DNA of 64,000 bases from Scyliorhinus canicula. Taxonomy: Eukaryota. Location: assembly GCF_902713615.1 (NCBI RefSeq), contig NC_052171.1, forward strand, positions 1,736,001 to 1,800,000. Direction: 5' to 3'. The position numbers and the translations under genes were made by a program. Shown here in pieces: positions 24,477 through 54,674 of this stretch; within the stretch, counting starts at the first letter, position 1; each line of letters starts with the position of its first letter. The notes below the pieces were generated by a model. It did not search any database. It was not told the DNA's origin and saw nothing but the letters and a program-made list of their open reading frames with translations.

Positions 24477-26093
24477 TCAGCTGACTGTATTATCTTTAAT
24501 GCATTCCATCATTAACGGACCCATGTCTCTTAATATTTTCTGATATTCCATTAGTGCTTGACCATAAGAGTCACGCTGTGTTACAAAGGACCGGAAGAGG
24601 TTTATGGGCTCTGCATACAGAAGCATTTCTGGAATTCCCATTTGCTTAGGAAAAGTCTGATTTCCGATCATAAATCGATGGAGCCGTTTCTCATCCAAGC
24701 ATTTCCCAAGATACTTCAAAATATCTCTGAGCCTATGTTCCAGGTGACACTCGTGCCAGTTTGAATATGGCTGGCTTAACAACAGATGCATAAGGACAGT
24801 CTTAAAAAGATAGGACCCAAGAATGTTCCGCTGGTCTGGAGAGCTACGGAGCTTTTCAGTTAGAAAGGTCAATATTTGAAGGCACTTGAGATGACAACTG
24901 TTTTTGGGAACGCTTTTTGCCATGATTTTTAGAAATCTGTACTCGCAGACAGCACAGGATATATGCCAGTAGGTAGTGGACGGCACTGTATTCTTGGTGT
25001 AATCAGGAAAGCTGGATACGAGATAGACGTCGGAATCCTTCAGCCTCACAGCGGGGAAGGCTTTAATGTAGATGTTTCGTCCTGACTGATACTGGACTTT
25101 TAACCCACAGCAACCGGTAATATTGTGGAAGGAAAGATCAAAATCATACTTGTGACAAACCTTGTTCCAGGACTTTGCGAGTGAAACCCTGAACCATTTG
25201 AGTACCTTCTTGTAGTCTAAGTACCACTCAGAACACACGATGGAAGCCAGGCAATTGGCACGAACATCAGCTTCAAACCTTTTACTGTGAATAAGACAAA
25301 GAACATCTCCTTCAAGTTCGGTACTTTTACACAGGCAGCCCAAGTCAGCACTTCCTGGTGTTACCATAACTATTCGGCCGTAACTTTGTTTATCAGGTGG
25401 GAGGTCACAGCAGCAGATCTCTGGTTTGAAGCAATATCCATCCTGAAGAAAAATTGGAACCAAAATATCGTACACCGAAGGCGTCTTGCAGCCCCATTTC
25501 TCAAACTGACTACCGATGCCGACACAGTCTTCGAGAATCAGCTCAGAGTCCCATTGGCAAATACTCCGACAAGCTTCCAAGAGGTTGTCCACAAAGCTTT
25601 CCACAAATTCGCACGTCTGCATCGGCTCTTGACTTACATTCTGAGTACACGCATCATAAAATTGATCCAGCACATATTTGTCAGGAATATTCAAAATGTT
25701 GTTGTAAATTTTTTGAGGAAATTCATTTTCCTTCTCTCCTTCCTCCTCTTCCTCACTGTTATAGTCCTGCGGTATATGTGGCCACGTGTCCTGTCTCCAC
25801 AGTTCCAAGAACAGAATTGTCACCATCAGGAGAATATTCCAGGTATTCCAATCTATCTGTGTTGAGTTTTCTGCTTTTACAATTGCATTGACCTTACTTT
25901 CCTGCTCAGGATTATACTTCTCATCCACTTCTTTCTGGAGCCGCTCCATCTCCAGCTTATACTTGTCCTCCTGCTCCTTCATCCTTGACTGCACTTCTTC
26001 ACTCTCAACTTCATCACTCAGGAGGCGGGGGTGGTACAAACTTCCCGTGATCACCAGGAGGCACACACTGAAAAGCCCTAATAGTGCTGGCAT
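24477..26093 (-). CDS. ITPRIP: Inositol 1,4,5-trisphosphate receptor-interacting protein family (ITPRIP or ITPRIPL1-like), 538 aa, Mab-21 fold, single coding exon
   Basis: Signal-like LGLFSVCLLVIT..HP, coiled coil, TM LFLELWRQD, EFVESFVDNLLEA, CHLKCLQI, SYLFKTVLMHLLL, LHRFMIGN, AEPINLFRSF, all matching recalled human ITPRIP; polypyrimidine tract and TAG acceptor 1 nt before the ATG. Paralog identity uncertain. Confidence 0.9.
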   Translation of the reverse strand: MPALLGLFSVCLLVITGSLYHPRLLSDEVESEEVQSRMKEQEDKYKLEMERLQKEVDEKYNPEQESKVNAIVKAENSTQIDWNTWNILLMVTILFLELWRQDTWPHIPQDYNSEEEEEGEKENEFPQKIYNNILNIPDKYVLDQFYDACTQNVSQEPMQTCEFVESFVDNLLEACRSICQWDSELILEDCVGIGSQFEKWGCKTPSVYDILVPIFLQDGYCFKPEICCCDLPPDKQSYGRIVMVTPGSADLGCLCKSTELEGDVLCLIHSKRFEADVRANCLASIVCSEWYLDYKKVLKWFRVSLAKSWNKVCHKYDFDLSFHNITGCCGLKVQYQSGRNIYIKAFPAVRLKDSDVYLVSSFPDYTKNTVPSTTYWHISCAVCEYRFLKIMAKSVPKNSCHLKCLQILTFLTEKLRSSPDQRNILGSYLFKTVLMHLLLSQPYSNWHECHLEHRLRDILKYLGKCLDEKRLHRFMIGNQTFPKQMGIPEMLLYAEPINLFRSFVTQRDSYGQALMEYQKILRDMGPLMMECIKDNTVS

Positions 26094-26296
26094 CCTACAA
26101 ACAATAAGCAGAGAAGAGATGTTCAGTAGATGTGTAATTCACAGGGGGAACAGCATTAGTAGATCTATCGGAGGCTGAGCCTCCACTGAGAGATCTTGCA
26201 AGCCTTTTAATAATTCATCCACCTTCACTGATTTGTAATATATACAGCTTCCTTTCCTGTTCTGTACAGCCTCAAGCTGTCTCACAGGGTTTGATG

Positions 26297-29200
26297 CAGT
26301 GGCGTGCAGAGGGGGGGGGGGGGGGGGGGCGACGGTGCATTGGCCACGGGCATCCATTGGATGGGGGCATCCAATCAGAGAAGGAAATATATATATTTTT
26401 TTTAATTTAGATTACCCAATTATTTTTTTCAATTATGGGGCAATTTAGCGTGGCCAATCCACCTATTCTGCACATTTTTTGGGTTGTGGGGGCGAAACCC
26501 ACGCAGACACGGGGAGAATGTGCAAACTCCACACGGACAGTGACCCAGAGCCGGGATCAAACCTGAGACCTCAGTTCCGTGAGGCGGTTGTGCTAACCAC
26601 TAGGCCACCGTGCTGCCCCAGAGAAGGAAATAAGATAGTAATTTTAAAATTTCAGCGGTGATAAATCAATTTTTGGAGGCTCACCGCACTGCAGAGGCAG
26701 TTGTTAGCCCTTTATTCCTTTAACATGGTGTACCCTTTCTGTCTAGAAAAAATGGTGCTTCTCCCCATCCCCCCACACGCATGCGCATGATGTACGTGGT
26801 GCAACCATCAAAAGCAACAAGCAGACGTGGCTGTTCGTTCCTGCGTTTCCTCGAGTCATAACTTCAGCTTTTTCTGTATCTAGATTAGTTCTTTTACCTA
26901 CTCAGGTCAGTGAATAGCTCTAGAACGGGTGCAACTACGTTTTTTATAGGTTTTTTGGTGATATTTAATGAAATATTTACGTGGGATGTAGTAAGAGTGA
27001 AGCCTGGATGATCAGAGGACTGCTATGGCATTTAATCTCGGAATAGGAGACATTATTCCTTAACCTGCTAATATTCGAATACAGATACCACTAATTTGCA
27101 AGTCTATGATATAAATTGCACAAAATTATCAGTAAAGAATCAGTGTGAAATAATTTGATACGAAGGAACAAAGAAATGAAATATGGGTTATCCATCTGCA
27201 ACTGACCAATTGTTTACCATTTTCTTCCCATTTTCTCATGCGTCTTACGGTTTTTGAGATAGAAAGTGAAATGTTACGAGTATTTCGTGTACAACCGAGT
27301 GGAGCACAGAACAGGAAAAAAAAGAGGGCCAGAGTCGAAGAAGAGTCCCATCAAAGAGGGGCATTAGATGCATGGATAAAAAGAAGTAAAGAAGAAGTAG
27401 GAGAACCTGGAGAAGTAAAAGATGATGTGGGTGCAGAGAAGGATTTTTCTGATACGGATTCAGCTCGGTCAGAACATAATACTCTCTCTCCTCAGTCTCG
27501 TTGTCAGGCTGATGATCCATGTGAAGAAAATAAAGAAGATTTTAGCATATTTTTGCAAAGAAGCGATTTTGGCTGTTTGAAGAAACCGTAGTTCGACTCC
27601 ATCATTCAACTACGATAGATGCTGAACTTCAACAGCAAATGTCTGCTGAAAAGAAAAGATGGAAAGCTATAACTGAACGGATTGTCGAGGTTATATCCTT
27701 TCTGGCAAAACAGAATCTGGCCTATCGTGGACATCGAGGAGAAGGAATACCTGGGTTATCAGAGCCAGGGGAGACAGTCAGTGAAAATACAGGAAACTTT
27801 CTAGCAACAATCAGACTTTTGGCCAAATATGATGACATCTTAGCAAAACACTTGCAGAGAGGGAAAGAGAAACCAAAAAGTGTCACCTACTTGTCCAACA
27901 GAATTCAAAACGAAATAATCAATCTTCTTGGTGAAACTGTCAAGAAAAATATATTTCCGAAATTAAAGACGCAAATATTTTAGCATAATGCTGGATTCAA
28001 TTCCAGATATTGCCCATGAAGATCAGGTTTCTGAAATTCTGCGTTACGTTCATATTGATGAAAACAGAAAAGTAGAAATAAAGGAGACATTTCTGGGATT
28101 TTTTCAAGTCAACAAGAAAGATGCAGTCAGCCTGGTAAATAAAATTCAGGAAAAATTGGAAGAAGACAAAATTTCCATGAATGACTGTCGTGGTCAAGCA
28201 TATGCTAACGCAGCAGTTATGGCTGGAGTGAGAGGAGGTGTTCAACAAAAAATTCTTGAAGTTAACCCAAAAGCTGTGTTTGTGAACTGCGAGAACCACA
28301 GCCTCAATTTGGCCTGTGTCCATGCAAGTGAGGTGCAACCTGTTGTTACATTTTTTGGCATGCTAGAAAAACTCTTTACTTTTTTTTCTTCATCTACTTC
28401 TCGTTGGGAAGTGTTAAAATCATGTCACTCGGACTGTGAAAAGACAGTGTGACACAAGATGGAGTTCCAGCCATGATGCTGTGCAAGTAATCCACGAAGA
28501 GTGTGACAACGTTATTGCAAGCCTTCAACACCTGCTGGAAGGAGAATTTTCAAGGGAAACTAAATCTGATGCAGGATCGCTACTGAACTCTATTCAACAG
28601 TTCCCGTTTATAGCTTTATTAAAATTTTGGTTCTCAGTTTTATCATCAGTGGAGAAAGTCTCAAAACATTTGCAGGATCCGAAAATGGGGTTCCATGAAG
28701 CTTCTTGTGATCTGAGAGGACTTATTCATATCTTGAATTTGAAGAATGATGAAATTATCCACAATGCAATAGATTTAGCCAACGAATATTGTGAAAATTG
28801 GGGAATATCAATTGCACGAACAAGGAGAAGAAGAATAATGCCTGGAGAGTCAGCAAGAGATAGTGGACTGACGGCACAAGAAGAAATGAATAGAGTAATG
28901 GTAGAGATTGTGAACAGATTAAAAACTGAAATTGAAGACCTCAGTGTCCGTCTTCAAAGACTCAGTGACTGATTTTCTTTTCTTCTGAACTTGAATTCAG
29001 TAGTGATTGAAGATGAACAAGAAAGAGAGAAATTAAAAAAGGAATGTTCAGACTTTGCAAATTATTATGACAATGATGTGGTTGCAATTCAGTTATATGA
29101 TGAAATTATTGATTTTGTGATGTTCCTTCGAGCTGGAGGGAATAGAGTTCCCCCTGATCCTAAAGATGCTCTGGAGTCTTTACTGCAGTATGGGAGGGAT

Positions 29201-29618
29201 GTCTTTCCGACGCTGTGTGTTTCATACAGATTACTGCTTACAATCGCATTTTCAGTCGCAAGCTGTGAAAGGTCATTTTCAAAACTGAAATTAATAAAAA
29301 CATATCCGAGGTCTTCTATGTCACAGGAGCGACTGACCAACCTGGCTTTAATAAGCATTGAAAAGAATTTCTCACAGCTGATGTAAAAAAGTGAAGTAGT
29401 TCAGGTGTTTTGTGACAGGAGGTATCATTTGGGGAAAAGAACTTAATAAATTTGATTGATTTATATTAAAATCGAATAAAGCGTTTATTTTATGTTTATA
29501 TATTCACAATGTTTTCCTGTCTCATAATATTTCTCAGTATATTAGGCCTTATACTTGAGTCTTTGGGGCATACAATCAAGATTTGCCCCGGGCATCACCA
29601 GACCTCTGCACGCTACTG
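26297..29618 (+). mobile_element. hAT DNA transposon with both TIRs
   Basis: TIRs CAGTGGCGTGCAGAGG and CCTCTGCACGCTACTG (1 mismatch); 8-bp flanks match only 5/8; SINE inside at 26400-26619. Confidence 0.88.
27268..29445 (+). pseudogene. hAT transposase (ZMYM1-like), frameshifted
   Basis: FLAKQNLAYRGH, GNFLA, IQNEII, DQVSEILRYV, CENHSLNL, DTRWSS, SVASCERSFSKLKLIK..RSSMSQERL over five broken ORFs. Confidence 0.9.
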
Positions 29619-36191: not shown

Positions 36192-36360
36192 CTGGTCACT
36201 TGTGGCCCCGAGCCCGCTTCACATGGTGCTTGGGCCTCGCTTGCACGGGCGGCGCTGCTTGTGGTTCAGGCTGCCATGTCTGGGAAGCGCCTCCTCTCCC
36301 TGTGCTCACAGCCTCTGAGGCGGGACAATACCTTCCCCTGTGACGCCACTTGGCCGGGCC
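36192..36360 (-). other. Candidate 5' non-coding exon of the ITPRIP-like gene
   Basis: Strong donor CAG|GTAAGG at 36192/36191 in unique GC-rich sequence; the coding exon begins with an acceptor and needs an upstream exon. Confidence 0.5.
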
Positions 36361-36380
36361 TGGCCAGGCCGGGCTGGCTC

Positions 36381-39300
36381 CGGGCTCCCTGCCCGGGGGC
36401 TCCCTGCCCGGGGGCTCCCTGCCCGGGGGCTCCCTGCCCGGGGGCTCCCTCCCTGCCCGGGGGCTCCCTGCCCGGGGGCTCCCTCCCCGCCCGGGGGCTC
36501 CCTGCCCGCGGGCTCCCTGCCCGGGGGCTCCCTGCCCGGGGGCTCCCTGCCCGGGGGCTCCCTGCCCGGGGGCTCCCTCCCTGCCCGGGGGCTCCCTGCC
36601 CGGGGGCTCCCTGCCCGGGGGCTCCCTGCCCGGGGGCTCCCTCCCTGCCCGGGGGCTCCCTGCCCGGGGGCTCCCTGCCCGGGGGCTCCCTCCCTGCCCG
36701 GGGGCTCCCTCCCTGCCCGGGGGCTCCCTGCCCGGGGGCTCCCTGCCCGGGGGCTCCCTCCCTGCCCGGGGGCTCCCTGCCCGGGGGCTCCCTCCCTGCC
36801 CGGGGGCTCCCTCCCTGCCCGGGGGCTCCCTCCCTGCCCGGGGGCTCCCTCCCTGTCTGGGGGCTCCCTCCCTGCCCGGGGGCTCCCTCCCTGCCCGGGG
36901 GCTCCCTCCCTGCCCGGGGGCTCCCTGCCCGGGGGCTCCCTCCCTGCCCGGGGGCTCCCTGCCCGGGGGCTCCCTCCCTGCCCGGGGGCTCCCTCCCTGC
37001 CCGGGGGCTCCCTCCCTGTCTGGGGGCTCCCTCCCTGTCTGGGGGCTCCCTCCCTGTCTGGGGGCTCCCTCCCTGCCCGGGCGCTCCCTCCCTGCCCGGG
37101 GGCTCCCTCCCTGCCCGGGGGCTCCCTGCCCGGGGGCTCCCTCCCTGCCCGGGGGCTCCCTCCCTGCCCGGGGGCTCCCTCCCTGTCTGGGGGCTCCCTC
37201 CCTGCCCGGGGGCTCCCTCCCTGCCCGGGGGCTCCCTCCCTGCCCGGGGGCTCCCTGCCCGGGGGCTCCCTCCCTGCCCGGGGGCTCCCTCCCTGCCCGG
37301 GGGCTCCCTCCCTGCCCGGGGGCTCCCTCCCTGTCTGGGGGCTCCCTCCCTGCCCGGGGGCTGCCTGCCCGGGGGCTCCCTCCCTGCCTGGGGGCTCCCT
37401 CCCTGCCCGGGGGCTCCCTCCCTGCCCGGGGCTCCCTCCCTGCCCGGGGGCTCCCTCCCTGCCCGGGGGCTCCCTCCCTGCCCGGGGGCTCCCTGCCTGC
37501 CCGGGGGCTCCCTGCCTGCCTGGGGGCTCCCTGCCCGGGGGCTGCCTCCCTGCCCGGGGGCTCCCTGCCCGGGGGCTCCCTCCCTGCCCGGGAGCTCCCT
37601 CCCTGCCCGGGGGCTCCCTGCCTGCCCGGGGGCTCCCTGCTTGGGGGCTCCCTGCCCGGGGGCTCCCTGCCTGCCCGGGGGCTCCCTGCCTGCCCGGGGG
37701 CTCCCTGCCTGCCCGGGGGCTCCCTGCCCGGGGGCTCCCTGCCCGGGGGCTCCCTCCCTGCCCGGGGGCTCCCTGCCTGGGGGCTCCCTCCCTGCCCGGG
37801 GGCTCCCTCCCTGCCCGGGGGCTCCCTGCCTGCCCGGGGGCTCCCTCCCTGCCCGGGGGCTCCCTGCCCGGGGGCTCCCTGTCTGGGGGCTCCCTCCCTG
37901 CCCGGGGGCTCCCTCCCTGTCTGGGGGCTCCCTCCCTGCCCGGGGGCTCCCTCCCTGCCCGGGGGCTCCCTCCCTGTCTGGGGGCTCCCTCCCTGCCCGG
38001 GGGCTCCCTCCCTGCCCGGGGGCTCCCTCCCTGCCCGGGGGCTCCCTCCCTGCCCGGGGGCTCCCTCCCTGCCTGGGGGCTCCCTCCCTGCCCGGGGGCT
38101 CCCTGCCCGGGGGCTCCCTGTCTGGGGGCTCCCTCCCTGCCCGGGGGCTCCCTCCCTGTCTGGGGGCTCCCTCCCTGCCCGGGGGCTCCCTCCCTGCCCG
38201 GGGGCTCCCTCCCTGCCCGGGGGCTCCCTCCCTGCCCGGGGGCTCCCTCCCTGCCCGGGGGCTCCCTCCCTGCCCGGGGGCTCCCTCCCTGCCCGGGGGC
38301 TCCCTGCCCGGGGGCTCCCTCCCTGCCAGGGGGCTCCCTGCCTGCCCGGGGGCTCCCTCCCTGCCCGGGGGCTCCCTCCCTGCCCGGGGGCTCCCTCCCT
38401 GCCCGGGGGCTCCCTGCTTGGGGGCTCCCTGCCTGGGGGCTCCCTCCCTGCCCGGGGGCTCCCTCCCTGCCCGGGGGCTCCCTCCTTGCCCGGGGGCTCC
38501 CTGCCTGCCCGGGGGCTCCCTCCCTGCCCGGGGGCTCCCTCCCTGCCCGGGGGCTCCCTCCCTGCCCGGGGGCTCCCTGCCTGCCTGGGGGCTCCCTGCC
38601 CGGGGGCTCCCTCCCTGCCCGGGGGCTCCCTCCCTGCCCGGGGGCTCCCTGCCTGCCTGGGGGCTCCCTGCCCGGGGGCTCCCTCCCTGCCCGGGGCTCC
38701 CTCCCTGCCCGGGGGCTCCCTCCCTGCCCGGGGGCTCCCTCCCTGCCCGGGGGCTCCCTCCCTGCCCGGGGGCTCCCTCCCTGCCCGGGGGCTCCCTCCC
38801 TGCCCGGGGGCTCCCTGCCTGCCCGGGGGCTCCCTGCCCGGGGGCTCCCTCCCTGCCCGGGGGCTCCCTGCCCGGGGGCTCCCTGCCTGCCCGGGGGCTC
38901 CCTGCCCGGGGGCTCCCTCCCTGCCCGGGGGCTCCCTCCCTGCCCGGGGGCTCCCTGCCTGCCCGGGGGCTCCCTGCCTGCCCGGGGGCTCCCTGCCTGC
39001 CCGGGGGCTCCCTGCCCGGGGGCTCCCTGCCTGCCCGGGGGCTCCCTGCCTGCTTGGGGGCTCCCTGCCCGGGGGCTCCCTGCCTGCCCGGGGGCTCCCT
39101 GCCCGGGGGCTCCCTGCCCCGGGGCTCCCTCCCTGCCCGGGGGCTCCCTGCCCGGGCGCGCCCTGCCTGCCCGGGGGCTCCCTGCCCGGGGGCTCCCTGC
39201 CCGGGGGCTCCCTGCCTGCCCGGGGGCTCCCTGCCCGGGGGCTCCCTGCCCGGGGGCTCCCTGCCCCGGGGCTCCCTCCCTGCCCGGGGGCTCCCTGCCT

Positions 39301-39690
39301 GGGGGCTCCCTGCCCGGGGGCTCCCTGCCCGGGGGCTCCCTGCCCGGGGCTCCCTGCCTGCCCGGGGGCTCCCTGCCTGCTTGGGGGCTCCCTGCCCGGG
39401 GGCTCCCTGCCTGCCCGGGGGCTCCCTCCCTGCCCGGGGGCTCCCTCCCTGCCCGGGGGCTCCCTGCCCGGGGGCTCCCTGCCCGGGGGCTCCCTCCCTG
39501 CCCGGGGGTTCCCTGCCTGCTTGGGGGCTCCCTGCCCGGGGGCTCCCTGCCCGGGGGTTCCCTGCCTGCTTGGGGGCTCCCTGCCCGGGGGCTCCCTGCC
39601 TGCCCGGGGGCTCCCTGCCCGGGGGCTCCCTCCCTGCCCGGGGGCTCCCTGCCCGGGTACACCCTCCCTGCCCGGGTACACCCTCCCTGC
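36381..39690. repeat. 3.3-kb GC-rich minisatellite of interspersed 15-bp and 19-bp units
   Basis: GGGGGCTCCCTGCCC and GGGGGCTCCCTCCCTGCCC; almost no A on the plus strand. Confidence 0.98.
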
Positions 39691-39775
39691 CCAGGGACAC
39701 CCTCCTCCCCCCAGCCGCACTGGAATGGGTGTGAGCAGGATGAGCCAATGCTGCTTCCGGGTTTCCCAGATCGGA

Positions 39776-43700: not shown

Positions 43701-43750
43701 CTACATTTATTATTCTCTCTTAAACAGGATCTATATTTTGTGCCCCACAG

Positions 43751-43865
43751 GGATATTGGCCCAGGAAACAGTTGATGCAGATCACCTTCCATACGGCAAG
43801 AGTTACATTGCTGCGCCCTATGTAAAGTATCTGGAGTCAGGTGGCTGCAGAGTGGTACCAGTCAG
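43751..43865 (+). CDS. GGH: GGH exon 2
   Basis: ILAQE...[24 protein letters not shown]; AG/GT boundaries, 115 nt, phases fit. Confidence 0.95.
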
Positions 43866-44708
43866 GTATTACTTCATATGTTTTAGTAGCTCTAGCGGCA
43901 GTCATACTGAGCAACAGCACAGAATGCACAGCCCAGTGACCCTCAGGTTGACTCAGACCCACCAACAAGAATACATCAGTTTCCCCTGGGATGCAGTGGT
44001 CAATTTTTGAATATGTGGTGGAACTGGAGATTACATGCAATTATTTTGCTCAATACATCTTATCGCAAGCAAAAGTAAGAGTACCACAATACCCTTCAAT
44101 CATTGAGGGGGAGATCAGTAAGCAGTCCTTGCAAGACAACACAGACTGCATTTGAAGTATTTCATTCATTGTGAAGCATTTTAGAGAGCCTTGAGATTGT
44201 GAAAGTGTAATACATTCGCTTTCTTTCTTTCCTGAAAAGCCGCTCGTGTAAGCTACTGAAGGCTGACTCACACGTCTCTGGATTCGTGGGAATGTGGGTT
44301 TTGCTGACAAGCTGGCATTTTATTGCCCAACCCTCACTGCACTTGAGTAGATGCCTGAGAGCCACCTTGTTGAATCCAACTGACTGGCCATTTCAGAGAG
44401 CAGCTAACAGCCAGTTGTTTGAGGTCGGTAGACACACTGAGACCAGACCGGGTGAGGGAAAGCAAGGTCCATTCCCTGAAGGAATATGGGTTTTCGAGAT
44501 AATCCTGTCATTTCATGGTCACCATTCCTGATACTAATTCCAGATTTCTGACATTAATGGAATTTAAATTGCTCAGTTACCATGGTAACCATGAAATTAA
44601 AGGTGTTTGAATGCATATCCCTGGGTCATATGGCTGGCCTCTGGATTAACTAGTCCAGTAACTAGCACTGTGCTGTCTTAACTCCATATGAAACATGTGA
44701 AGCGATAT

Positions 44709-45657
44709 TGTTGCACGTTTTACTATGGGCGTAAAACGCGTTTATTGGAGTGTATTAACACGCCTCCGAGTTCGACGTGTGCTTAACACTGCTAGGCTCT
44801 GTTCTATGTAATTATTTAGCTCTGGAGTCGCCAGCTGCCGTATAGGCAACGTCACAAGTATTCCAAGGTCAAATTCAAAGTAATAAAGACGATACACCGA
44901 TTAGTAAAGTTCAAACGATCAATATTTATTATACAGTTAATAATAAATACTCATGCACACACTAAGAGACTAAACTACAACTAAACATAAGCAAACAGAA
45001 TACTTATCTAACAGGAACAGGCAAGGTCAGAGAACGAGGCCTTCGTCCTGGTTTTGTCTGCAGCCTTCAGCAAGCGTTCTGGCACTTGGGAGTCTAGCGG
45101 GCTTGGATCGCGTAGCGAGCGTTGAACTTACGGTTTCGGCGGCTGGTGCTCAACGGCTGGAGTCAGGATACCAGGTGTCAGTCGGGGCCGGAGCACAGGT
45201 TTAACAGACCGGACAACACGAGGTCCCTATCTTTTATAGGGGTTCCGTTGTCCTTCCCTCTTCCCGGGCGGGCTCTACCTATTGGATCAATTTCTTATCG
45301 ATACTGGATTAATTCCCCAATGCGAGGGGGTCTCCGTGATGGAGGGGGCGTTTCTTATGTCCTTTTGTTCGGAGGTTTCTGGTGCCTCGATGTCTGGGTC
45401 TTGATTGGAATGTGTCCATTCAGAACCAAATGTATCTTTTGTGTGGGTGTTCAAGTCTGATGGCCTCATTAGCATGCAAAGCGTTTTGCCATTTGCACCT
45501 AGCTAAGGTCTTTTCACCTGAGCCCAAACTGGTTTCTGCTGCTGCAGAATGCAAACTGCTCTTTGCAGACTGCTGTTCTGGCTGAACTGTCTGTTTCTCA
45601 GCAGCCTTCCATTTTAGTTTGGCTCAGTGTCCATTTTGCGTGGCCAGCATGGCTACA
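44709..45657 (-). repeat. 3' LTR
   Basis: TG...CA; minus-strand AATAAA at 44925-44930; identical to the other LTR except G45327 vs A54196 as read by eye. Confidence 0.97.
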
Positions 45658-45667
45658 TTCCCTCCTT
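45658..45667 (-). other. Polypurine tract AAGGAGGGAA
   Basis: Abuts the 3' LTR on the minus strand. Confidence 0.85.
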
Positions 45668-45988
45668 GTGATCCTCACAATCATACTATTGTGAAGGATC
45701 ACCTATGTGCTTTGCCTCCTTGTGTTCTGACCTCTTGCCAGTTCCTGTTCTACTCTGTTCTAAACTATGGGAAGAAGAGAAAATTTTTTTTTAACTAACA
45801 TCTCTACTTGGCCCTATGTCAAAAGGGACATGCATTACTACAATTGGGAACCTCTACCTATCACTATTAACCTTAACCTTAACTTAAACATTTAATCACT
45901 CTAAAATCTTAACCATTCACACCACAACATCACACTTCCCAACTCGGCAGTCGAGTATGGAACAATATAATACATGGCTGAATTTTAT

Positions 45989-46342
45989 TTACAGAGTGTT
46001 GTAATCAGTGAGGGGTTGAGGGGTTTGGTGGAATCCGAAGATGGGGGATTGCACTCTATAGATGGGTGAGGTGCTGGAACGAGAGGCTCTCCTCTTCCAT
46101 TTCCTCAACCTGAGGGTCTGCACTAGGATGGTGAGGATCGCGATCACCAACAGTGATTCGATTATGTAGGACATGGAGTACCACGTCATGAATTTAGTAC
46201 ACCAGGTCTGAACCTCGCTGATCAGAGCTGAGCACTGGGGGTTTGTTGTACTAACATTTACGGTGGGGGTTGTGGGGGAAACGTGTCTTGTTTCCACACA
46301 TATACATATGACATTAAATAGTAATAAGTGGGCTTCCATCAT
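45989..46342 (-). CDS. Proviral small single-pass membrane protein, 117 aa, in the env position
   Basis: First ATG after predicted acceptor at 46445; hydrophobic N-terminus, Thr/Pro stalk with NVS sequon, Cys pair, TM YIIESLLVIAILTILVQTL, RLRKWKRR, terminal YNTL. Confidence 0.65.
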   Translation of the reverse strand: MMEAHLLLFNVICICVETRHVSPTTPTVNVSTTNPQCSALISEVQTWCTKFMTWYSMSYIIESLLVIAILTILVQTLRLRKWKRRASRSSTSPIYRVQSPIFGFHQTPQPLTDYNTL

Positions 46343-47282
46343 TTTGCTGTTCTTCTTCTTTCTCTTCCTTCTTCCTCCGGTATTGACAATCCTGGCTTCG
46401 ACCTCTGTCTCGTCCTTTGAAACCTTTGGGATCAAGCACAGTATCTGTCAATACACAGTTTAAGACCTTTACTTGTTAGTGCATCTGTCTTTCAAAACCC
46501 AATTGACCCTTTAAAATGACTGGCTAAGTCACACCCTGTGACTCCCCTCATTTTTTTTTTTCAAAAGCGAATTTAAAGACCAGCATACACCTAACAATCC
46601 TTCCTTCTGCGAGCCGTCTCGCAGGCTTTGCTGATTTACCATCCGAATGTTCCCGGATGTAAATAGCATGTGGGATGGCGGCCGAAGGGCTACCTAACGT
46701 AAAATGAAAACAAACTTGGAAACAAACATCCGAATGAGTTGCGTATGGGCCGCTACGGGTATGAGTTGGATGGGATCCCCGGGTAGGGCGTGCTGTGCCA
46801 TACCCGAGCTTGGCTGACCAAGGGTTGGTTCTCAGACAGGGCGGGTCCTCAGTGCCGTTTGTCCACTGCCTGAGTAACCTGGAGAAAACGGGTACGAATG
46901 TGTTTACCATGACTTGCAGCCTCTATTTCGCCGAATAGAGGGGCACCTAAAAAAAAAACCAAGGGAGCCAAGATGCTCCAACTGAGGACATCACTGAAGT
47001 TCTCAGAGATATCTGCAGATAAACTATTTGGCGTGTGGCCTTACAACTTTGGAAAAGATCTCCAATCAAACCGAAGTTCTCAGAAGTATCTGCGGACAAA
47101 CTAACGTGTATGTGAGGTGGTCACAATCTTTTCAGCTGAAAAGAAGATGTCCATCCTCCAGCTGAAACATTTACATTCCTGAAAACAAACAAACATAAAA
47201 CGAAGACAAACATACGTGCAGGTTCCATCAGAAAGGACATCGTTTCCCTCAAACGATTCCTATCTTACATCATCTGGACACC

Positions 47283-50200
47283 TCACTTTGATTCTGCCTC
47301 TGTGAACAGGGTCACAAAGGGGTTGCCGTGTCGGGAGTCAGACACCGTGTCGTCCTGCTCTCCCGGATCCCACACCCTTGTGTGGATCAGGCATGCTATT
47401 TTGGAGTTGTGTGACCGGGGGTCACTTTCATCATTGCGGACAAGTCTGTAGGAATTGTCCCTGTGCCATTGTGTAGCGTCGAGTGTGTTGTCGGGGTAGT
47501 CGGGGTCGGGTGGTGGTTCTGGGTTTTTAAGGTAAGTGACTTCCATGGGGTCACTGGAGTCGGGGTCGTAGTTGGTGCAGTGTGGGCTGTATGGCTGTGT
47601 GGTGTCGCTGTCCTCAGAGTCAGTGTCTGTCCTACTGTCTCTGCTGTGGCAGCTTGTGGGCGTGTCGGGGCGTGGTCTGTAGTGGTCTGTGGGCGGAGTC
47701 GTGGGCGAGTCCGTTGATGAACTGGTCTGTGAGGGGGATGGTGGAAAAGTGTTTCTGGTGGGCGGGGTGAAGTGTTCTGCTGCATCCAGCAGGACATGGT
47801 GAGCATGGTTGGCCTGTGTTCCATATGCCTTTAACTGGTTTATATGGAACCACGCGGTCTTCCCATTAGGATATTTGATCCTGTATACGGAGGGGCTAAT
47901 TTTGTCCGAAATTGAGTAGGGACCGGAATATTTTGGAGCCAAAAAACTGCTGGGGTTATAAACAGATAACATTACCTGTTGCCCAACCTGGAATTCTGTG
48001 GTGTGTACGGTCTTATTGAAACAGGCAGTCCGTTGCTGTCGGCGTTTCCCTAGCTGGACTGCGGCTGCGAGCTGTGCAGACCTCACAGTCTCAACTAGAT
48101 CTTTAACTGCCTTTTCATGTGTGAGGGCCGTCACTTCGGGGCTTGTCATGTCCAGTCCTAAAAGGAATTCTGTACCTTTCATAGGGCGTCCGGTCATGAG
48201 TGTATGTGGTGTGTATCCTGTAGATGTGGAGACAGTGTTCCTTATGAACATAAGTGCAAAGGGGAGCACTGAATCCCATGTGGAATTGTTCTCTTGAACC
48301 ATTTTTCTGAGGGTAGTTTTTAGGGTCCGATTCATGCGCTCCACAATCCCGCTGGACTGTGGATGATACGCAATGTGGAAGTTTTGTTTGATGCCGAATA
48401 TTGTCAGGACGTTCCTCATGACCCGTCCTGTAAAGTGAGATCCCTGGTCCGAATCGATACTTCGGGGTAAACCCCATCTCGTGAAGATGTGGTGGGTCAG
48501 GATCTTTGCAGCTGTCTTAGCTGTGTTTGTTCGTGAGGGAAATGCCTCTACCCACTTGGTAAAGGTATCTATCACCACCAGAACGTATTTATAGCCATTC
48601 CTGCAAGGGGGCAATGGACCTATAAAGTCGATCTGGAGGTTTGTCCAAGGGCCGTTAACTGGGCGAGTATGCCGAAGTTGTGCTTTCTTAGAATACCTCT
48701 CCGGGTTATTCTGAGCACAAATCAGGCAATTCTCTATGTAGTGCGTTACATCATTCCTGAGATTAGGCCACCAACAGAGTTGCCTGAGGTGCCTCGTTGT
48801 TGCATCAATTCCCTGATGCCCGTGTCCGTCATGGAACAAGGCAATCATCTGATTCCTGTCCTGCTGTGGGACCACATAAAGTTGGTCCTTAATGATCACA
48901 CCCTCATGTGTGGTCAGTGCGTGTTTAAAGTGCTCGTAAGCAGGCACAAAGTTTCCCTTGAAAACCTCCCTGAGGTCTCCGTCCTGTTTTTGTGCTGCCA
49001 CGAGATCTTTAATATCAGTCTGTGAGACTTGGACTGCGCTCACAGGGGCGCTAGCTGGTGCGCTAGCTGGGGGGGTCCATAAGTGTCCTCTCCTGGAACC
49101 TGCTTTAGCCAATGCGTCGGCTTTTACATTCCCAGGGGGTGATGACCTATGGTGGCTTCGAACTTTTATAATGCCGAAGGTCCTGTCCTTCGCTTTTGCT
49201 AAAATATGCTGGAGTAGAGGGGCTGATGGAAGGGGTTTTCCGTCTGCGGAGACAAAACCTCGTGTCCTCCACAGGGGCAGAAAATCGGTTAAACTGTTAC
49301 AGACATATAAGCTGTCTGAATATATGTCTGCTGGGCTGGGGAAAGAATCGGGGTGGTCCACTATGTACGCTATGGCTGCTAGCTCTGCTGCCTGCGCGCC
49401 TAAGTGACCTGGTAACTTAAGAGCTATCTCTTCGAGAGCGCGCCCCTGCGCGTCCTCTACATAGATGCCGCATCCTGTGATACGCTCACCATTTAAAACT
49501 GTGGAGGAACCGTCTACATAAATCCTCAAGGGTCCACACGTGTCTGTGGGCTGGGGGCTTTGTTTCGGGTTCCCTATCTTCCTGGGGGGTGTTTTTGCTA
49601 AAAAGGGTCCTGTGTTATGCAGGGGAACTACAATTTCACAGTCATGGGGCTGTCCGGGGTATTGGAGGTTGTCGGCTAAGTATGTGTGTGTGCGTGTCCG
49701 TTTCACTGTAATGTCCCGTCCTTGTAAAAGTAGGGTCCACCTAGCTGCCCTAATCTGGCTAACTGAACCGTCCTTCAGTCGACCGTCTAGTAGTAGCTGT
49801 GTGGGTGTGTGTTCGGTCAGAATAGTAATGGGGTTGAGTCCGGTGATGTATGAGAAATACTGTACTGCCCAGAAGACAGCAAGGAGGTGCCTCTCACAGG
49901 CTGAAAATCCTTGTTCTACTGGGTCTAACAGTCGGGAGGCATAAGCCACTGGTCTTAGCTGCTCGTGCCGTTCCTGAAGCAACACGGCCGAGAGGGTCAG
50001 ATCGGTGCTCGCTACCTCTATTGCGTACGGTGAAAGTTGGTCGGGGACTAGCAGCGCGGGTGCTGCACTAAGGGCTCGTTTCAACTCTTCCACAGCGCCT
50101 GTATGCTGCGGAAGCCATTCCCAGGGGGCTCCTTTCTTAAGGAGGTCTGAAAGTGGGGCGGCTTTTGTCGCGAATCCGTCGATGTGGTTCCGACAATAGC

Positions 50201-51509
50201 CAACCAGTCCTAAAAACGACCGGAGGGCTGATACATTCTGGGGAAGGGGCAATTTGACAATCGAATCAATTCTTTTGAATTCGATCTCGCGTTTGCCTTG
50301 CGTGATGACTGTTCCCAAATACATCACTTTACTTTCCAATATCTGGGCCTTTTTCGGGTTAACTTTACAGCCAATTTCAGTTAAGAGTTCTAGGAGTTCG
50401 GCCAGAAGCGAAATGTGCTCTGCCTTTGTGTCTGTCTGCAGTAGTAGGTCGTCTACATACTGTACCAGACAATCGGGTCGGGAAAATTTTTCTAATCCAC
50501 TTGCCAGCTGTCGGTGGAAAATGGAGGGTGAATTGTGGAATCCTTGTGGGAGGCATGTCCACGTGTACTGCTGTGTTTTAAAAGTGAATGCGAATTTGTA
50601 TTGGCACGCTTTTGCCAATGGTATTGACCAGAATCCATTACTGATGTCCAATACCGTGAAGTACTTGGCGTTGAGACCCTGCTTGAGCATGGTCTCGGGA
50701 CTAGTAGCTACCGTTGGGGCTACTGCGGGGGTTACTTTGTTGAGTTCCCGATAATCGATGGTCAGACGCCATGATCCATCGGGCTTCCTCACTGGCCAAA
50801 TAGGGGTATTGTTGGTGGAGGCTACCGTTCTCAGTACACCTTGGTCCAACAAGCTGCCTATAACTTTTTCTATTTCCACCTCTGCCTCGAGGGGAAATCT
50901 ATACTGTTTTTGCGGTCGGGGGTCCTGTCCGGTAACATGAACTTGTCCAGTCATTCTACCACAGTCATGACGGTGACTTGCAAATGCTGTCCTGTGTTTG
51001 TTTAGTAGGGCCTTAATTTGTCTGTCGGTGTGGAGTGTAGTCAGGTCGAATGAGTACTCTCCCACTGCGCTAATCCGATTAGCGTAGTCTCCTACTGTGA
51101 GGGTGGCTGGGGCTCTGTCTGATCTCGCCATTCGCCAGACACACTGGTTCACTGGGTCGAACGACAAGCTATGAGCGTTCATAAAATCTATCCCCAGGAT
51201 GTGCTCTGCTGTCCGGGGAAGATTTACTAAAACTACGGGGTGCCTTGTGCTAATGTTCCCTAGCTGGATCGCTACGGGTGCTGTGATATGTCCCTGCTGC
51301 GAGTGTCCGGTGAACCCGCTAAGTGTGATGGTGGAGGTGGTCGGCCACGTGTCTATGTGTGCCGTGGTTGTGGAGTTAATGGTGGTGCGGGATCCTCCTG
51401 TGTCCCACAGTAACTCTATGGGCTTCCCTTTGACTTTTGCCGTGACTACGGGCCTCCCTGATGAGTCCCATAGTGTGTCACAGACCCAAGTGGGGGAGCC
51501 CGAACACCG
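47283..51509 (-). CDS. pol: Pro-Pol (protease, RT, tether/RNase H-like, RNase H, integrase), 1408 aa, in frame with gag
   Basis: Translated by hand upstream of the listed ORF with no stop: LLWDTGGS and ILGIDFM; RT LPQGFHNSP and YVDD; RNase H YVDGSS, AELAA, YSDS, GNVKADALAK; IN HHCC, D-D35-E and GPY. Confidence 0.95.
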   Translation of the reverse strand, partial: RCSGSPTWVCDTLWDSSGRPVVTAKVKGKPIELLWDTGGSRTTINSTTTAHIDTWPTTSTITLSGFTGHSQQGHITAPVAIQLGNISTRHPVVLVNLPRTAEHILGIDFMNAHSLSFDPVNQCVWRMARSDRAPATLTVGDYANRISAVGEYSFDLTTLHTDRQIKALLNKHRTAFASHRHDCGRMTGQVHVTGQDPRPQKQYRFPLEAEVEIEKVIGSLLDQGVLRTVASTNNTPIWPVRKPDGSWRLTIDYRELNKVTPAVAPTVATSPETMLKQGLNAKYFTVLDISNGFWSIPLAKACQYKFAFTFKTQQYTWTCLPQGFHNSPSIFHRQLASGLEKFSRPDCLVQYVDDLLLQTDTKAEHISLLAELLELLTEIGCKVNPKKAQILESKVMYLGTVITQGKREIEFKRIDSIVKLPLPQNVSALRSFLGLVGYCRNHIDGFATKAAPLSDLLKKGAPWEWLPQHTGAVEELKRALSAAPALLVPDQLSPYAIEVASTDLTLSAVLLQERHEQLRPVAYASRLLDPVEQGFSACERHLLAVFWAVQYFSYITGLNPITILTEHTPTQLLLDGRLKDGSVSQIRAARWTLLLQGRDITVKRTRTHTYLADNLQYPGQPHDCEIVVPLHNTGPFLAKTPPRKIGNPKQSPQPTDTCGPLRIYVDGSSTVLNGERITGCGIYVEDAQGRALEEIALKLPGHLGAQAAELAAIAYIVDHPDSFPSPADIYSDSLYVCNSLTDFLPLWRTRGFVSADGKPLPSAPLLQHILAKAKDRTFGIIKVRSHHRSSPPGNVKADALAKAGSRRGHLWTPPASAPASAPVSAVQVSQTDIKDLVAAQKQDGDLREVFKGNFVPAYEHFKHALTTHEGVIIKDQLYVVPQQDRNQMIALFHDGHGHQGIDATTRHLRQLCWWPNLRNDVTHYIENCLICAQNNPERYSKKAQLRHTRPVNGPWTNLQIDFIGPLPPCRNGYKYVLVVIDTFTKWVEAFPSRTNTAKTAAKILTHHIFTRWGLPRSIDSDQGSHFTGRVMRNVLTIFGIKQNFHIAYHPQSSGIVERMNRTLKTTLRKMVQENNSTWDSVLPFALMFIRNTVSTSTGYTPHTLMTGRPMKGTEFLLGLDMTSPEVTALTHEKAVKDLVETVRSAQLAAAVQLGKRRQQRTACFNKTVHTTEFQVGQQVMLSVYNPSSFLAPKYSGPYSISDKISPSVYRIKYPNGKTAWFHINQLKAYGTQANHAHHVLLDAAEHFTPPTRNTFPPSPSQTSSSTDSPTTPPTDHYRPRPDTPTSCHSRDSRTDTDSEDSDTTQPYSPHCTNYDPDSSDPMEVTYLKNPEPPPDPDYPDNTLDATQWHRDNSYRLVRNDESDPRSHNSKIACLIHTRVWDPGEQDDTVSDSRHGNPFVTLFTEAESK

Positions 51510-53258
51510 TCAGTTCGTCTCGTCCACATTGGTGGGTCCTGACTGTACTGCTACATTGTGGATTGGTTTTGCTTTGTTGCGGTTCAGAGTGCCTGTCTGC
51601 TGGCCTCTCTGAGATCGCTGGGGTGCATTACACTCTTTTGCCCAATGCCCTAACTGTCCACAGTTATAGCATTCCTGTCCTTTCTGTTGAGGGCTGCTCT
51701 TGCCTTCATTTACCCATGCGGGCTTCTGGTGCTCTCTGACTGCTTGGATATCTGCAGCAGCCTGAGCCTCTTCTGGGGATCTAACCTTTGCTTTTGCCTG
51801 AAGCGATTGCTCCCAAGCGCGGGACAATCTTTTGAGGACCCATTTTTCGTTATGGGCCTCTTCTGAGGGGTCGTAATTATTGCAAGCGCTCTGTCCTGCT
51901 TCTGTTGCGTGTGAGATAATTGTGCGCGTCCACTTAACCATGTTTTCGCGGGTTAAATGCGCTCTATCTAGCTGTCCGAAAACTGCGCTGAAATGAATCC
52001 ACAGCCTTCCTGCGAATGCTGTGGGGTGTTCGGATCTCTTCTGCCTGCACTTATTTAAGCCTTCTACGGGGTCACCTCTATTGTACCCGATGGCATCTAA
52101 AATGGCAGTGTGCATCTCCTCTAGGCTGCCTCCTGCCACGTTCTGTGGGTCGGGGAGGGCTGCCACTACACTCTGGTCTAAGCTCAGCACGGTGAGCTTA
52201 ACCTGCTCTCTCTCATCCAGGCCGTACATGGTAGCCTGCTGTTTTACTTTAGCAAAGAACTGGTGGGGGTCTGCGGTGGGGAGGAACGGAGTGATCTTTT
52301 CACAAGCGTCCCTTAGCTGGGTTACTGTTAAAGGGGTGGTGTAAGTTATGTCTGGGGCGCCTTCTGATTCGGCTTTCCTCTGTGTGGTTACGGGATTCAT
52401 GGGTGCGGTTATGGTCTGAGCTGTGGGGGGTTGGGGTGCCTGTCGTTTCTGCTGAGCTGCTGGCGCACATGTTCCCTGAACATAACGCTGCGCTGTCTCG
52501 CTTAATTCCTGCCAATCTGGGGCATTTTCCCCATCTAACTGAGCTCCAAAGGTGCTTTGGAAGCCATTCTGCACCGAAAGCAGAGATTGCAGTTCCGCAA
52601 TCTGTTTCCTGCATTTCGCGTGGTCAACTGTGCTTTGTCTTTGTTCGGTCGTTGCAGCGTGGAGTGCTCTCAAAGCTGCTTTGAGATCGGAGCATTGCCT
52701 CTGCAATGCCTCCACCTGCTTTTCCGATTCCTGTCTTATCAGAACGGCACGTTGCACGTCCTGATAGGCTTTCTCATACTGGGTCTGGGAACTGTTCAGA
52801 TGAGCTAGACAAGACTGGTGAGCCCTCTTGGCATCATCCACCTCTCTACCCTTCTCTGCCAACTTCCCTTTTAATTCCAGGTTTTCTTTCTCGATGTCCC
52901 TGACATCGACCTTACTCATTCGGTTCCTTTCCTCTAAATCTGCCCGGAGCGTCCTGATGACCTCCTCTGCGCCTCGCAACTGTGCCAAGCAGGACACAAT
53001 CGCCATCGGCTTGCGTGCTTTACTTAAACTCTTTTTGTGTATTTGAGAGAGGTTCTCCCACCAAGTATGACCTATACTTCCGGGACCTGTCTCCTCATTT
53101 GCACAAAACTCTTTCCAAAGGGGCCATCCCTTTCCCTGCAGATATTTGCGGAGTTCCAGCTCCCACGTGGGACACTGGCCTACTCTGCTACTGCTGCTGG
53201 TCGCTGCGACCACAAACTTTGCTGGATCCATCAGACGTTCCATTGCCTGCATGGCCAT
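51510..53258 (-). CDS. gag: Gag, 582 aa, with long N-proximal coiled coil and one CCHC knuckle
   Basis: First ATG at 53258; CYNCGQLGHWAKEC; ends in TGA. Confidence 0.92.
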   Translation of the reverse strand: MAMQAMERLMDPAKFVVAATSSSSRVGQCPTWELELRKYLQGKGWPLWKEFCANEETGPGSIGHTWWENLSQIHKKSLSKARKPMAIVSCLAQLRGAEEVIRTLRADLEERNRMSKVDVRDIEKENLELKGKLAEKGREVDDAKRAHQSCLAHLNSSQTQYEKAYQDVQRAVLIRQESEKQVEALQRQCSDLKAALRALHAATTEQRQSTVDHAKCRKQIAELQSLLSVQNGFQSTFGAQLDGENAPDWQELSETAQRYVQGTCAPAAQQKRQAPQPPTAQTITAPMNPVTTQRKAESEGAPDITYTTPLTVTQLRDACEKITPFLPTADPHQFFAKVKQQATMYGLDEREQVKLTVLSLDQSVVAALPDPQNVAGGSLEEMHTAILDAIGYNRGDPVEGLNKCRQKRSEHPTAFAGRLWIHFSAVFGQLDRAHLTRENMVKWTRTIISHATEAGQSACNNYDPSEEAHNEKWVLKRLSRAWEQSLQAKAKVRSPEEAQAAADIQAVREHQKPAWVNEGKSSPQQKGQECYNCGQLGHWAKECNAPQRSQRGQQTGTLNRNKAKPIHNVAVQSGPTNVDETN

Positions 53259-53554
53259 TTCCTCTGACTCTCTTTTTATAATTTGGAACAGGGGGTTGCT
53301 GGGGTGGTGTTTCGAGAAACGGGTACGGCTTGCGCTATGTTCCGTTAACAAAACTACCGAAAGTTTGTCGCAACAAAAAGCTTTCAGTTTTACCTTACAG
53401 CCCTGTTAGTACGCATGCACTAAAACACACTTCCGAATTTCGCTTATTATTTTGAACACCTTGAATACTTGTGATCTCTTTCTTTCTCTGCAATTTGGAG
53501 TTCTAATTCAAATTTCAGGGTCCTGGACACTGTGGTGTTTCCACTTACAACAGG

Positions 53555-53572
53555 GTCCCGGCGGAGTCGCCA
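53555..53572 (-). other. Primer-binding site for tRNA-Arg(UCU)
   Basis: TGGCGACTCCGCCGGGAC is complementary to the recalled vertebrate tRNA-Arg-TCT 3' end GUCCCGGCGGAGUCGCCA; 5 nt from the LTR. Confidence 0.8.
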
Positions 53573-53577
53573 CTAAA

Positions 53578-54526
53578 TGTTGCACGTTTTACTATGGGCG
53601 TAAAACGCGTTTATTGGAGTGTATTAACACGCCTCCGAGTTCGACGTGTGCTTAACACTGCTAGGCTCTGTTCTATGTAATTATTTAGCTCTGGAGTCGC
53701 CAGCTGCCGTATAGGCAACGTCACAAGTATTCCAAGGTCAAATTCAAAGTAATAAAGACGATACACCGATTAGTAAAGTTCAAACGATCAATATTTATTA
53801 TACAGTTAATAATAAATACTCATGCACACACTAAGAGACTAAACTACAACTAAACATAAGCAAACAGAATACTTATCTAACAGGAACAGGCAAGGTCAGA
53901 GAACGAGGCCTTCGTCCTGGTTTTGTCTGCAGCCTTCAGCAAGCGTTCTGGCACTTGGGAGTCTAGCGGGCTTGGATCGCGTAGCGAGCGTTGAACTTAC
54001 GGTTTCGGCGGCTGGTGCTCAACGGCTGGAGTCAGGATACCAGGTGTCAGTCGGGGCCGGAGCACAGGTTTAACAGACCGGACAACACGAGGTCCCTATC
54101 TTTTATAGGGGTTCCGTTGTCCTTCCCTCTTCCCGGGCGGGCTCTACCTATTGGATCAATTTCTTATCGATACTGGATTAATTCCCCAATGCGAGAGGGT
54201 CTCCGTGATGGAGGGGGCGTTTCTTATGTCCTTTTGTTCGGAGGTTTCTGGTGCCTCGATGTCTGGGTCTTGATTGGAATGTGTCCATTCAGAACCAAAT
54301 GTATCTTTTGTGTGGGTGTTCAAGTCTGATGGCCTCATTAGCATGCAAAGCGTTTTGCCATTTGCACCTAGCTAAGGTCTTTTCACCTGAGCCCAAACTG
54401 GTTTCTGCTGCTGCAGAATGCAAACTGCTCTTTGCAGACTGCTGTTCTGGCTGAACTGTCTGTTTCTCAGCAGCCTTCCATTTTAGTTTGGCTCAGTGTC
54501 CATTTTGCGTGGCCAGCATGGCTACA
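53578..54526 (-). repeat. 5' LTR with promoter
   Basis: TATAAAA on minus at 54101-54107, CCAAT about 45 nt upstream. Confidence 0.97.
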
Positions 54527-54674
54527 ATATGCCAGAAAGAGCTTGTGCCTTCAGAAGGTGGATAAAATTGTTGGGAGGAAAAATAAAAACCACATAGTAA
54601 TGGTACAATATTTGGAGATTTTTACTACAGGGAGCCAATGACTCAGGCTGCTGTAATAAAGGAAAATTATGAAA

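Follow-up and report, generated by a model that had tools for sequence, protein, structure and literature searches.

Loss of env is usually taken to make a retrovirus a cell-confined retrotransposon. The concept of an Env substitute has already been published for insect MDG1 elements (PMC11952523). According to that report, env-less MDG1 elements such as Drosophila 412 and Stalker2 carry a small transmembrane (TM) protein, sORF2, for soma-to-oocyte transfer, and the concept is extended there by prediction to nackednaviruses and picornaviruses (PMC11952523). Its survey is described as covering arthropod Metaviridae and NCBI viruses, and fusion by insect sORF2 is stated not to have been reproduced in culture (PMC11952523). 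The FAST proteins of reoviruses are described as having fusion peptides in the form of a cystine loop, a proline-hinged loop or a polyproline helix (PMC7830690), and in p14 the membrane-proximal basic patch is reported to be a Golgi export signal (PMC3952855).

Among retroviruses, the snakehead retrovirus (SnRV) is described as complex, with a number of accessory ORFs (PMC12193657), and SnRV-like endogenous retroviruses (ERVs) have already been reported in sharks (PMC4422223). An env-less SnRV-like element has been reported in the frog Pelophylax, and the account of it describes no replacement membrane protein (PMC4131045). For six cartilaginous fish genomes, PMC7947760 reports no lokiretroviruses. 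Additional background is given in PMC10435555, 10.1101/2021.11.23.469661, 10.1101/2024.07.05.601823 and PMC6001957. A literature search, in which subscription papers were thinly covered and Repbase and Dfam lay outside the search, found no description of the catshark family presented here or of any vertebrate retrovirus in which a small membrane ORF takes the place of env.

The element described below is an env-less, still-amplifying ERV of the catshark Scyliorhinus canicula that probably comes from the poorly sampled group around SnRV. In the position of env it carries a 117-aa ORF, which is genuine and under purifying selection.

The provirus, its relatives and its family

The window analysed is a stretch of 64,000 nt of the S. 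canicula genome (NC_052171.1:1,736,001-1,800,000), and it contains a complete ERV on the minus strand with both LTRs present. The parts of the provirus are as follows, with positions given in the window:

44705-44708 and 54527-54530: target duplication ATAT, 4 nt
53578-54526, minus: 5' LTR, 949 nt, TG...CA, with a TATA box at 54107, AATAAA at 53799 and a poly(A) site near 53776
53995-54000, minus: GTAAGT in the R region of the LTR, a conserved and likely major donor, with the stretch from the predicted cap site to it free of ATGs
53555-53572, minus: primer-binding site (PBS), 18 nt, complementary to the 3' end of host tRNA-Arg(UCU)
53543-53548, minus: post-PBS GTAAGT, in young subfamilies only
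51510-53258, minus: gag, 582 aa, one CCHC knuckle, no Gly2, TGA stop in frame with pol
47283-51509, minus: pol, about 1400 aa, with protease, RT, tether, RNase H and integrase
46480-46905, minus: block of conserved non-coding sequence that follows pol and precedes the small ORF, with several short hairpins
46445-46481, minus: first branch-point-like motif (CACTAAC, 46481-46475) and first AG (TTGACAG ending at 46445)
46424-46436, minus: second AG (46425-46424), the likely true acceptor, with the exon starting at 46423
46343-46423, minus: purine (GAA)-rich, ATG-free leader, possibly with an enhancer role
45989-46342, minus: small ORF, 117 aa, in the env position, ATG at 46342
45658-45675, minus: polypurine tract
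44709-45657, minus: 3' LTR, 949 nt, one mismatch to the 5' LTR (1/949 nt)

In run X22, 46 reads with poly(T) loose ends at 53776 mark the poly(A) site of the 5' LTR. The match to the tRNA-Arg(UCU) primer occurs 11 times in the genome, and ARAGORN calls tRNA-Arg TCT in one of the three examined. The gag-TGA-pol frame is presumably expressed through readthrough of the stop. The small ORF is separated from the pol stop by 940 non-coding nt and from the 3' LTR by 331 nt. The CACTAAC, TTGACAG, ATG and post-PBS GTAAGT (53548-53543) motifs named in the original prediction were all found on the minus strand at these positions, and the GAA-rich stretch that it had pointed out is 89% purine over 46380-46343.

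On the plus strand, positions 43714-43869 match a gamma-glutamyl hydrolase exon (PDB match, E 4e-7), and because this exon lies 0.8 kb from the 3' LTR, the provirus is probably placed antisense within an intron of that gene. Elsewhere in the window, the minus strand carries a single 553-aa frame (24477-26138), hydrophobic at its N-terminus and with a Mab-21 domain at the C-terminus, which we take to be ITPRIP-like, and a broken Ty3/gypsy-type element (3338-7407) with about 26 tandem 45-nt repeats in its gag-protease region. A frameshifted hAT transposase lies on the plus strand (27154-29386), and a minisatellite of about 3.5 kb (36200-39750) has 80% GC, units of 15/19 nt and an extreme strand skew.

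The relationships of Pol were examined with reference RT rows named from the supplement of PMC7947760 (Dataset S2), from which P0020 was taken as SnRV and P0017 as Loki-Xtr. In an RT-only tree the element falls on the retrovirus side with support of 98/95. Lokiretrovirus identity was rejected as an RT grouping (p-AU 0.028 for RT, 1e-7 for RT plus tether). In a set that holds no foamy or ERV-L rows, an RT clade with SnRV was neither recovered nor rejected (p-AU 0.18), and a wider set was rejected on RT plus tether (p-AU 0.0006). The RT is 48% identical to that of SnRV, whereas the tether and integrase are 40-47% identical to lokiretroviruses versus 26-33% to SnRV; the closest Pol proteins are those of frog and coelacanth elements (42-48%), which are annotated as NYNRIN-like. 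Pol thus looks mosaic in these comparisons, with an RT nearer to SnRV and a tether and integrase nearer to lokiretroviruses, and the element possibly represents an unnamed early-branching retrovirus clade. We use 'SnRV-related, class III-like' only as a working label, because the SnRV clade was neither recovered nor rejected, the tether and integrase are nearer to lokiretroviruses, and foamy and ERV-L rows are absent from the set.

Several features of organization accompany these identities. The in-frame gag-pol stop is shared with SnRV and related ERVs (clade Huo; CmiERV lineage I of the elephant shark). A further likeness is the Arg-tRNA primer, which is observed on the catshark side, and SnRV presumably primes on tRNA-Arg. 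A non-myristoylated Gag with one zinc knuckle is likewise described for SnRV (PMC2717909). In contrast, the env frame of SnRV exceeds 1100 codons while the catshark element has none, and no SnRV reading frame is similar to the small protein. With lokiretroviruses the element shares a dual RNase H and a similar tether and integrase (PMC7947760), but it lacks their paramyxovirus-F-like env. The published catshark element ERV-Spuma.0-Sca is a different one, as its LTR starts otherwise and it has an annotated env (PMC10699275).

A genome search with the 117-aa protein found at least 150 copies, all 98-100% identical and unbroken; as 150 of 5337 candidates were scored, the copy number is a lower bound. 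The PBS plus donor has 186 exact matches in the genome. Among 20 young copies that were fetched, the LTR pairs are 99.3-100% identical (nine of them fully) and gag and pol are both open in 16, and amplification of the family is therefore recent or ongoing. Older subfamilies encode small proteins about 45-65% identical to that of the window with an unchanged layout, and their LTR pairs, found in 14 of 20 copies, are 91-98% identical. The small ORF is also open in all 16 copies that were chosen by PBS rather than by ORF. Its homologues occur in S. torazame; none was found outside Scyliorhinus in sequence searches that included 1.84 billion representatives, in which the fifth match, a 1498-aa repetitive protein, was treated as spurious.

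The small ORF had been predicted to stand in place of env, and this is borne out by the family: none of the 56 fetched copies has room for env, and the gap from pol to the ORF is about 0.6-1.2 kb in those that retain the end of pol. In the catshark genome no env-bearing sister was found with an SnRV env query or with PF00523, both insensitive searches; the genome-wide PF00523 search, which was uncontrolled, was blank, and the element itself lacks a paramyxovirus-F-like env. The same genome contains 78 gamma-type env loci. The env-less class III ERVs MuERV-L and the Pelophylax element resemble the catshark family in lacking env and in their high copy number, and to our knowledge MuERV-L has no replacement membrane protein.

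Some individual copies deviate from this layout. Two older ones (L119 and L121) have gag and the small ORF without pol, with LTRs about 95-96% alike, and may be non-autonomous derivatives. Just 3' of the 5' LTR, many young copies (in the series L122-L141) have a one-base insertion in the PBS. One of them (L127) carries about 25 further bases beyond the PBS that read like more tRNA-complementary sequence, as from over-extension of the primer.

The small reading frame and its protein

The length of the ORF is by itself weak evidence for a gene, because shuffling the 3' region 2000 times gave an ATG ORF of at least 110 aa in 48 cases. That count, together with the lack of junction reads in four runs described below, favours the explanation that the ORF arose by chance in the 3' untranslated region and is propagated with the element. 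This explanation is effectively refuted by dN/dS values of 0.13-0.3 with a frame-specific signal, and by a start, a length and motifs that are conserved across the divergent subfamilies and in the second species. Purifying, frame-specific selection shows that the small ORF is a real gene.

The ORF is both conserved and under selection. Pairwise comparison of the window ORF with its intact counterparts in 36 older copies (of 50 loci, the 14 that were broken or unparsed were left out) gave an overall dN/dS of 0.29 at a dS of about 1.4, and these figures are guides rather than tests, as the pairs are non-independent and dS is near saturation. The value is 0.31 in frame versus 0.88 and 2.03 in the shifted frames. 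By region, dN/dS reaches 0.81 in the signal and 0.77 in the distal ectodomain and drops to 0.15 over residues 46-77 and 0.13 in the tail, hence selection is focused on the juxtamembrane, TM and tail part of the protein. For the same element pairs, the small ORF gave 0.24, gag 0.12 and pol 0.09. Env has been lost, and the small protein has been kept long enough to saturate dS.

By hydropathy and motif, residues 1-18 form a predicted signal peptide with a hydrophobic stretch at 6-16, and an AxA-type signal end is present in 35 of the 36 older copies. The Thr/Pro ectodomain with its NVS sequon would measure about 37 residues if the signal is cleaved after residue 18, and its distal part is hydrophilic and nearly unconstrained. 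The distance from the start to the conserved core is 45-51 residues in the 36 older copies. An aromatic juxtamembrane segment rich in Trp, Phe and Tyr (47-59) is conserved and could act as an MPER. It is followed by one strong TM window at about 56-77, which contains Glu62, and by a polybasic segment at 78-88. A low-confidence structure model (pTM 0.30) places helices at 2-18 and 47-90; in the tail, where FAST proteins have an amphipathic helix, the hydrophobic moment is 0.43-0.48 at 91-103, and the model shows the tail as non-helical with pLDDT below 50. The protein is likely a type I glycoprotein displayed at the cell surface.

The N-glycan sequon and the TM Glu are kept in all 36 older copies, as is the basic patch (5-7 K/R in the 12 residues after the single TM helix, hence always at least five), and the ectodomain Cys of the WC motif is kept in 35. 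The proposed C-x10-C loop and the YNTL end are present in the window protein; however, the first Cys of the loop has a counterpart in only one of the 36 older copies and a terminal YxxL in none, and both are recent features of the young subfamilies. Conversely, a single Cys in the C-terminal half of the TM is found in 35 of the 36 and is absent from the window protein. Gly2 is absent from the window protein and from all of the older copies.

An unlikely explanation of this layout is that env long ago lost its middle by deletion, leaving the signal peptide, the membrane-proximal region, the TM and the tail, with a remaining role in capsid targeting or budding and not in fusion. The env position, the env-type splice pattern and the aromatic juxtamembrane segment are what a collapsed env would retain. 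An engineered VSV G stem of similar layout reportedly aids budding; our literature search found no paper on the VSV G stem or on shark follicle-cell processes. Sequence comparison speaks against such an origin, as a profile of 37 copies had no match in SnRV or in 20 catshark env loci, where the best of 1588 frames had an E of about 1, and all ten longer database matches are Scyliorhinus models ending in the small-ORF exon, none annotated as env. Furthermore, the insensitive search with the SnRV env query gave no env-bearing sister, and the 940-nt spacer holds no conserved frame in 41 older copies. The small protein matched none of the envs tested, with no alignment to the ends of any of them.

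Transcription and splice signals

The element is transcribed on its sense strand. In the stranded run X23 (1675 reads), sense depth over 45660-47139 is 35-61x and over gag-pol 0.5-15x; it neither steps at the acceptor nor rises downstream of it, and one contig of run X1 is unbroken over 46091-46678. This read evidence is blurred by internal priming at an A-run near 46555 and by poor 5' coverage. After the pol stop, 18 ATGs precede the small ORF, therefore splicing or internal entry is needed for its translation. From the conserved signals, the small protein is very probably made from a spliced mRNA.

The donor and the acceptor are probably not the pair first proposed; the main donor is more probably the LTR GTAAGT at 54000 and the main acceptor the AG at 46424. 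The post-PBS GTAAGT of the original prediction exists and is kept in 14 of 18 readable young copies, but in none of 16 older leaders. The LTR donor is conserved instead, in 20/20 young LTRs and in 17/20 older LTRs that are otherwise barely alignable; it lies 107 nt after the TATA box, and the chance of a GTAAGT is about 3% per 120 nt. No ATG precedes it in any of the 29 LTRs in which both the TATA box and the donor were found, and use of the post-PBS donor would add two upstream ATGs by comparison. On the acceptor side, the motif proposed at 46445 is present with its AG in 34 of 41 older copies, whereas the second AG at 46424 is kept in all 41. In 39 of 42 sequences an ATG follows the first AG, and likewise in 39 of 42 there is no ATG between the second AG and the start codon. 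Two annotated S. canicula gene models join element copies exactly at the second AG, and four annotated S. torazame models have an exon start at the peptide that matches it.

The spliced mRNA thus has a conserved donor and acceptor on its side, but no junction read. None joining 53549 to 46444, as had been predicted, was found in runs X22, X23, X1 and X2, and these four runs list no junction that links one of the two donors to one of the two acceptors, although the power of the search is low since the joint lies within about 80 nt of the cap and the libraries are oligo-dT primed. Genomic retrocopies of spliced RNA gave 0 matches for the post-PBS donor, while a related pattern gave 186, and 0 matches for the LTR donor.

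The conserved block upstream of the acceptor (46905-46480) has 54-86% column identity per 30-nt window in the 41 older copies, and may have a role in export, packaging, splice control or internal entry. A second coding frame at 46878-46620 was rejected, being open in at most five of the 41. The alignment of the block folds at -114.7 versus -82.6 +/- 4.3 when shuffled; the antisense folds equally (-112.2), only two compensatory pairs occur, and the single-sequence z is -1.24, hence a strong conserved RNA structure was considered weakly supported and set aside. An Rfam search of the block had no match.

Annotated S. canicula proteins are identical, letter for letter, to genomic copies over the element exon. 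Scyliorhinus isoforms of SUGCT, KIAA1958, CFAP36, PTGER3, B3GAT1-like, HEPACAM2-like and a galectin-domain gene end in the small-ORF exon (P0121-P0124 and P0126-P0132), and some gain its TM segment. These annotations suggest that host gene models have repeatedly captured the exon as a terminal exon. Such isoforms, and the sense-strand transcripts that cover the small ORF, would suit a captured or host-benefit gene, for example one that interferes with other retroviruses. This reading is very improbable, as selection is seen among the subfamilies of the element, in parallel with gag and pol, and not at one fixed locus, and no cellular homologue was found among the 1.84 billion representatives.

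Possible roles and comparison with known systems

As a working mechanism, we propose that the small protein is a type I membrane glycoprotein which the element would need for making new germline copies. With a single splice from 54000 to 46424, no ATG would precede that of the small ORF in the mRNA. Cleavage of the signal peptide and glycosylation of the ectodomain would follow, and the basic patch may aid delivery to the plasma membrane. There the protein might stand in for Env: it might collect capsids where cells touch and promote membrane merger or protrusions locally, through which capsids would pass into the adjoining cell, in the end a germ cell. This transfer model follows, by analogy, the proposal made for MDG1 sORF2. 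We tentatively put a role as Env substitute for cell-to-cell spread first, mainly because a cell-confined retrotransposon would have no clear use for a surface glycoprotein. Against this ranking, one short TM with a basic patch is common among small viral membrane proteins, and env-less retroviruses can amplify without such a protein. The more specific scenario, in which a vertebrate retrovirus swapped Env for a minimal glycosylated membrane protein and passes directly from cell to cell into the germline, is conceivable and is advanced with somewhat more reserve. A fusogen is one plausible reading of the sequence beside an accessory or budding role.

Rather unlikely, though it accounts for several of the same features, is an accessory factor resembling Vpu, M2 or E3, which would form a channel, or would bind a host membrane protein through the TM Glu and remove or block it. 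It would counter a restriction factor or the immune recognition of cells that express the element, while the element would retrotranspose inside germ cells or borrow Env from other retroviruses, for which the gamma-type env loci are possible helpers in trans. A type I topology with a glycan, the invariant TM Glu and one ectodomain Cys would suit TM-mediated binding of a partner, and selection acts on the TM and tail and not on the distal ectodomain. A likeness of the TM Glu to CD3-zeta/FcR-gamma adaptors had no support in a Pfam search and was set aside. Influenza M2 is found with TMIE among the nearest language-model neighbours of the protein (0.84-0.86, at the level of a lead only), and the relative SnRV is described as having accessory ORFs of its own (PMC12193657). 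However, searches with the small protein in Pfam, PDB sequences and viral folds returned nothing significant, so that no family or structure match backs an accessory factor, SnRV has no similar frame, and a gene that outlives env over a dS-saturating span needs a separate explanation. The invariant TM Glu and the single Cys fit an accessory channel or antagonist equally well as an Env substitute.

The family is of interest because it has no env, and yet a surface-type protein is strongly selected across many subfamilies and the element is still inserting. If capsids moved between cells as the Env-substitute reading proposes, Env-independent infectivity would reach from insect Metaviridae to vertebrate retroviruses, with an origin separate from those of insect sORF2 and reovirus FAST. 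The protein would then be a small fusogen with a cleaved signal peptide, and a new class of 100-residue fusogens would become testable. If it is instead an accessory factor, it would represent an orphan retroviral membrane protein aimed at the defences of cartilaginous fish.

The original prediction had likened the protein to reovirus FAST proteins, and this likeness stands in size, the single TM and the polybasic patch but fails in other respects. FAST proteins have about 100-200 aa and one TM in an N-out/C-in orientation, to which the 117 aa and the predicted topology of the small protein correspond; their ectodomains of 20-40 aa and their juxtamembrane polybasic motif likewise have counterparts in it. 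FAST proteins are described as lacking a signal peptide and using a reverse signal anchor (PMC3952855), whereas the small protein has a predicted signal and a glycan site. The myristate or palmitoylated di-Cys reported for FAST proteins (PMC3952855, PMC7830690, PMC12945298) has no conserved counterpart here, where a myristoylation site is missing. In addition, the FAST ectodomain is described as a fusion peptide (PMC7830690), whereas the distal ectodomain of the small protein is hydrophilic, glycosylatable and almost free to change. On the features compared, the small protein is not a member of the FAST family, and its fusion-promoting part, if any, would have to be the aromatic segment with the TM and tail.

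The likeness to MDG1 sORF2 is one of layout. Both are sense-encoded, single-pass proteins with a juxtamembrane basic patch in env-less LTR elements, and some lepidopteran sORF2 cases are reported to sit 3' of pol (PMC11952523). They differ in that MDG1 elements are insect Metaviridae and the catshark element belongs to the vertebrate retrovirus lineage. Moreover, sORF2 proteins are described as 63-107 aa long and mostly predicted to be N-myristoylated, with no splicing seen in that account (PMC11952523), whereas the catshark protein has 117 aa, no Gly2, a predicted signal peptide and N-glycan, and a predicted spliced mRNA.
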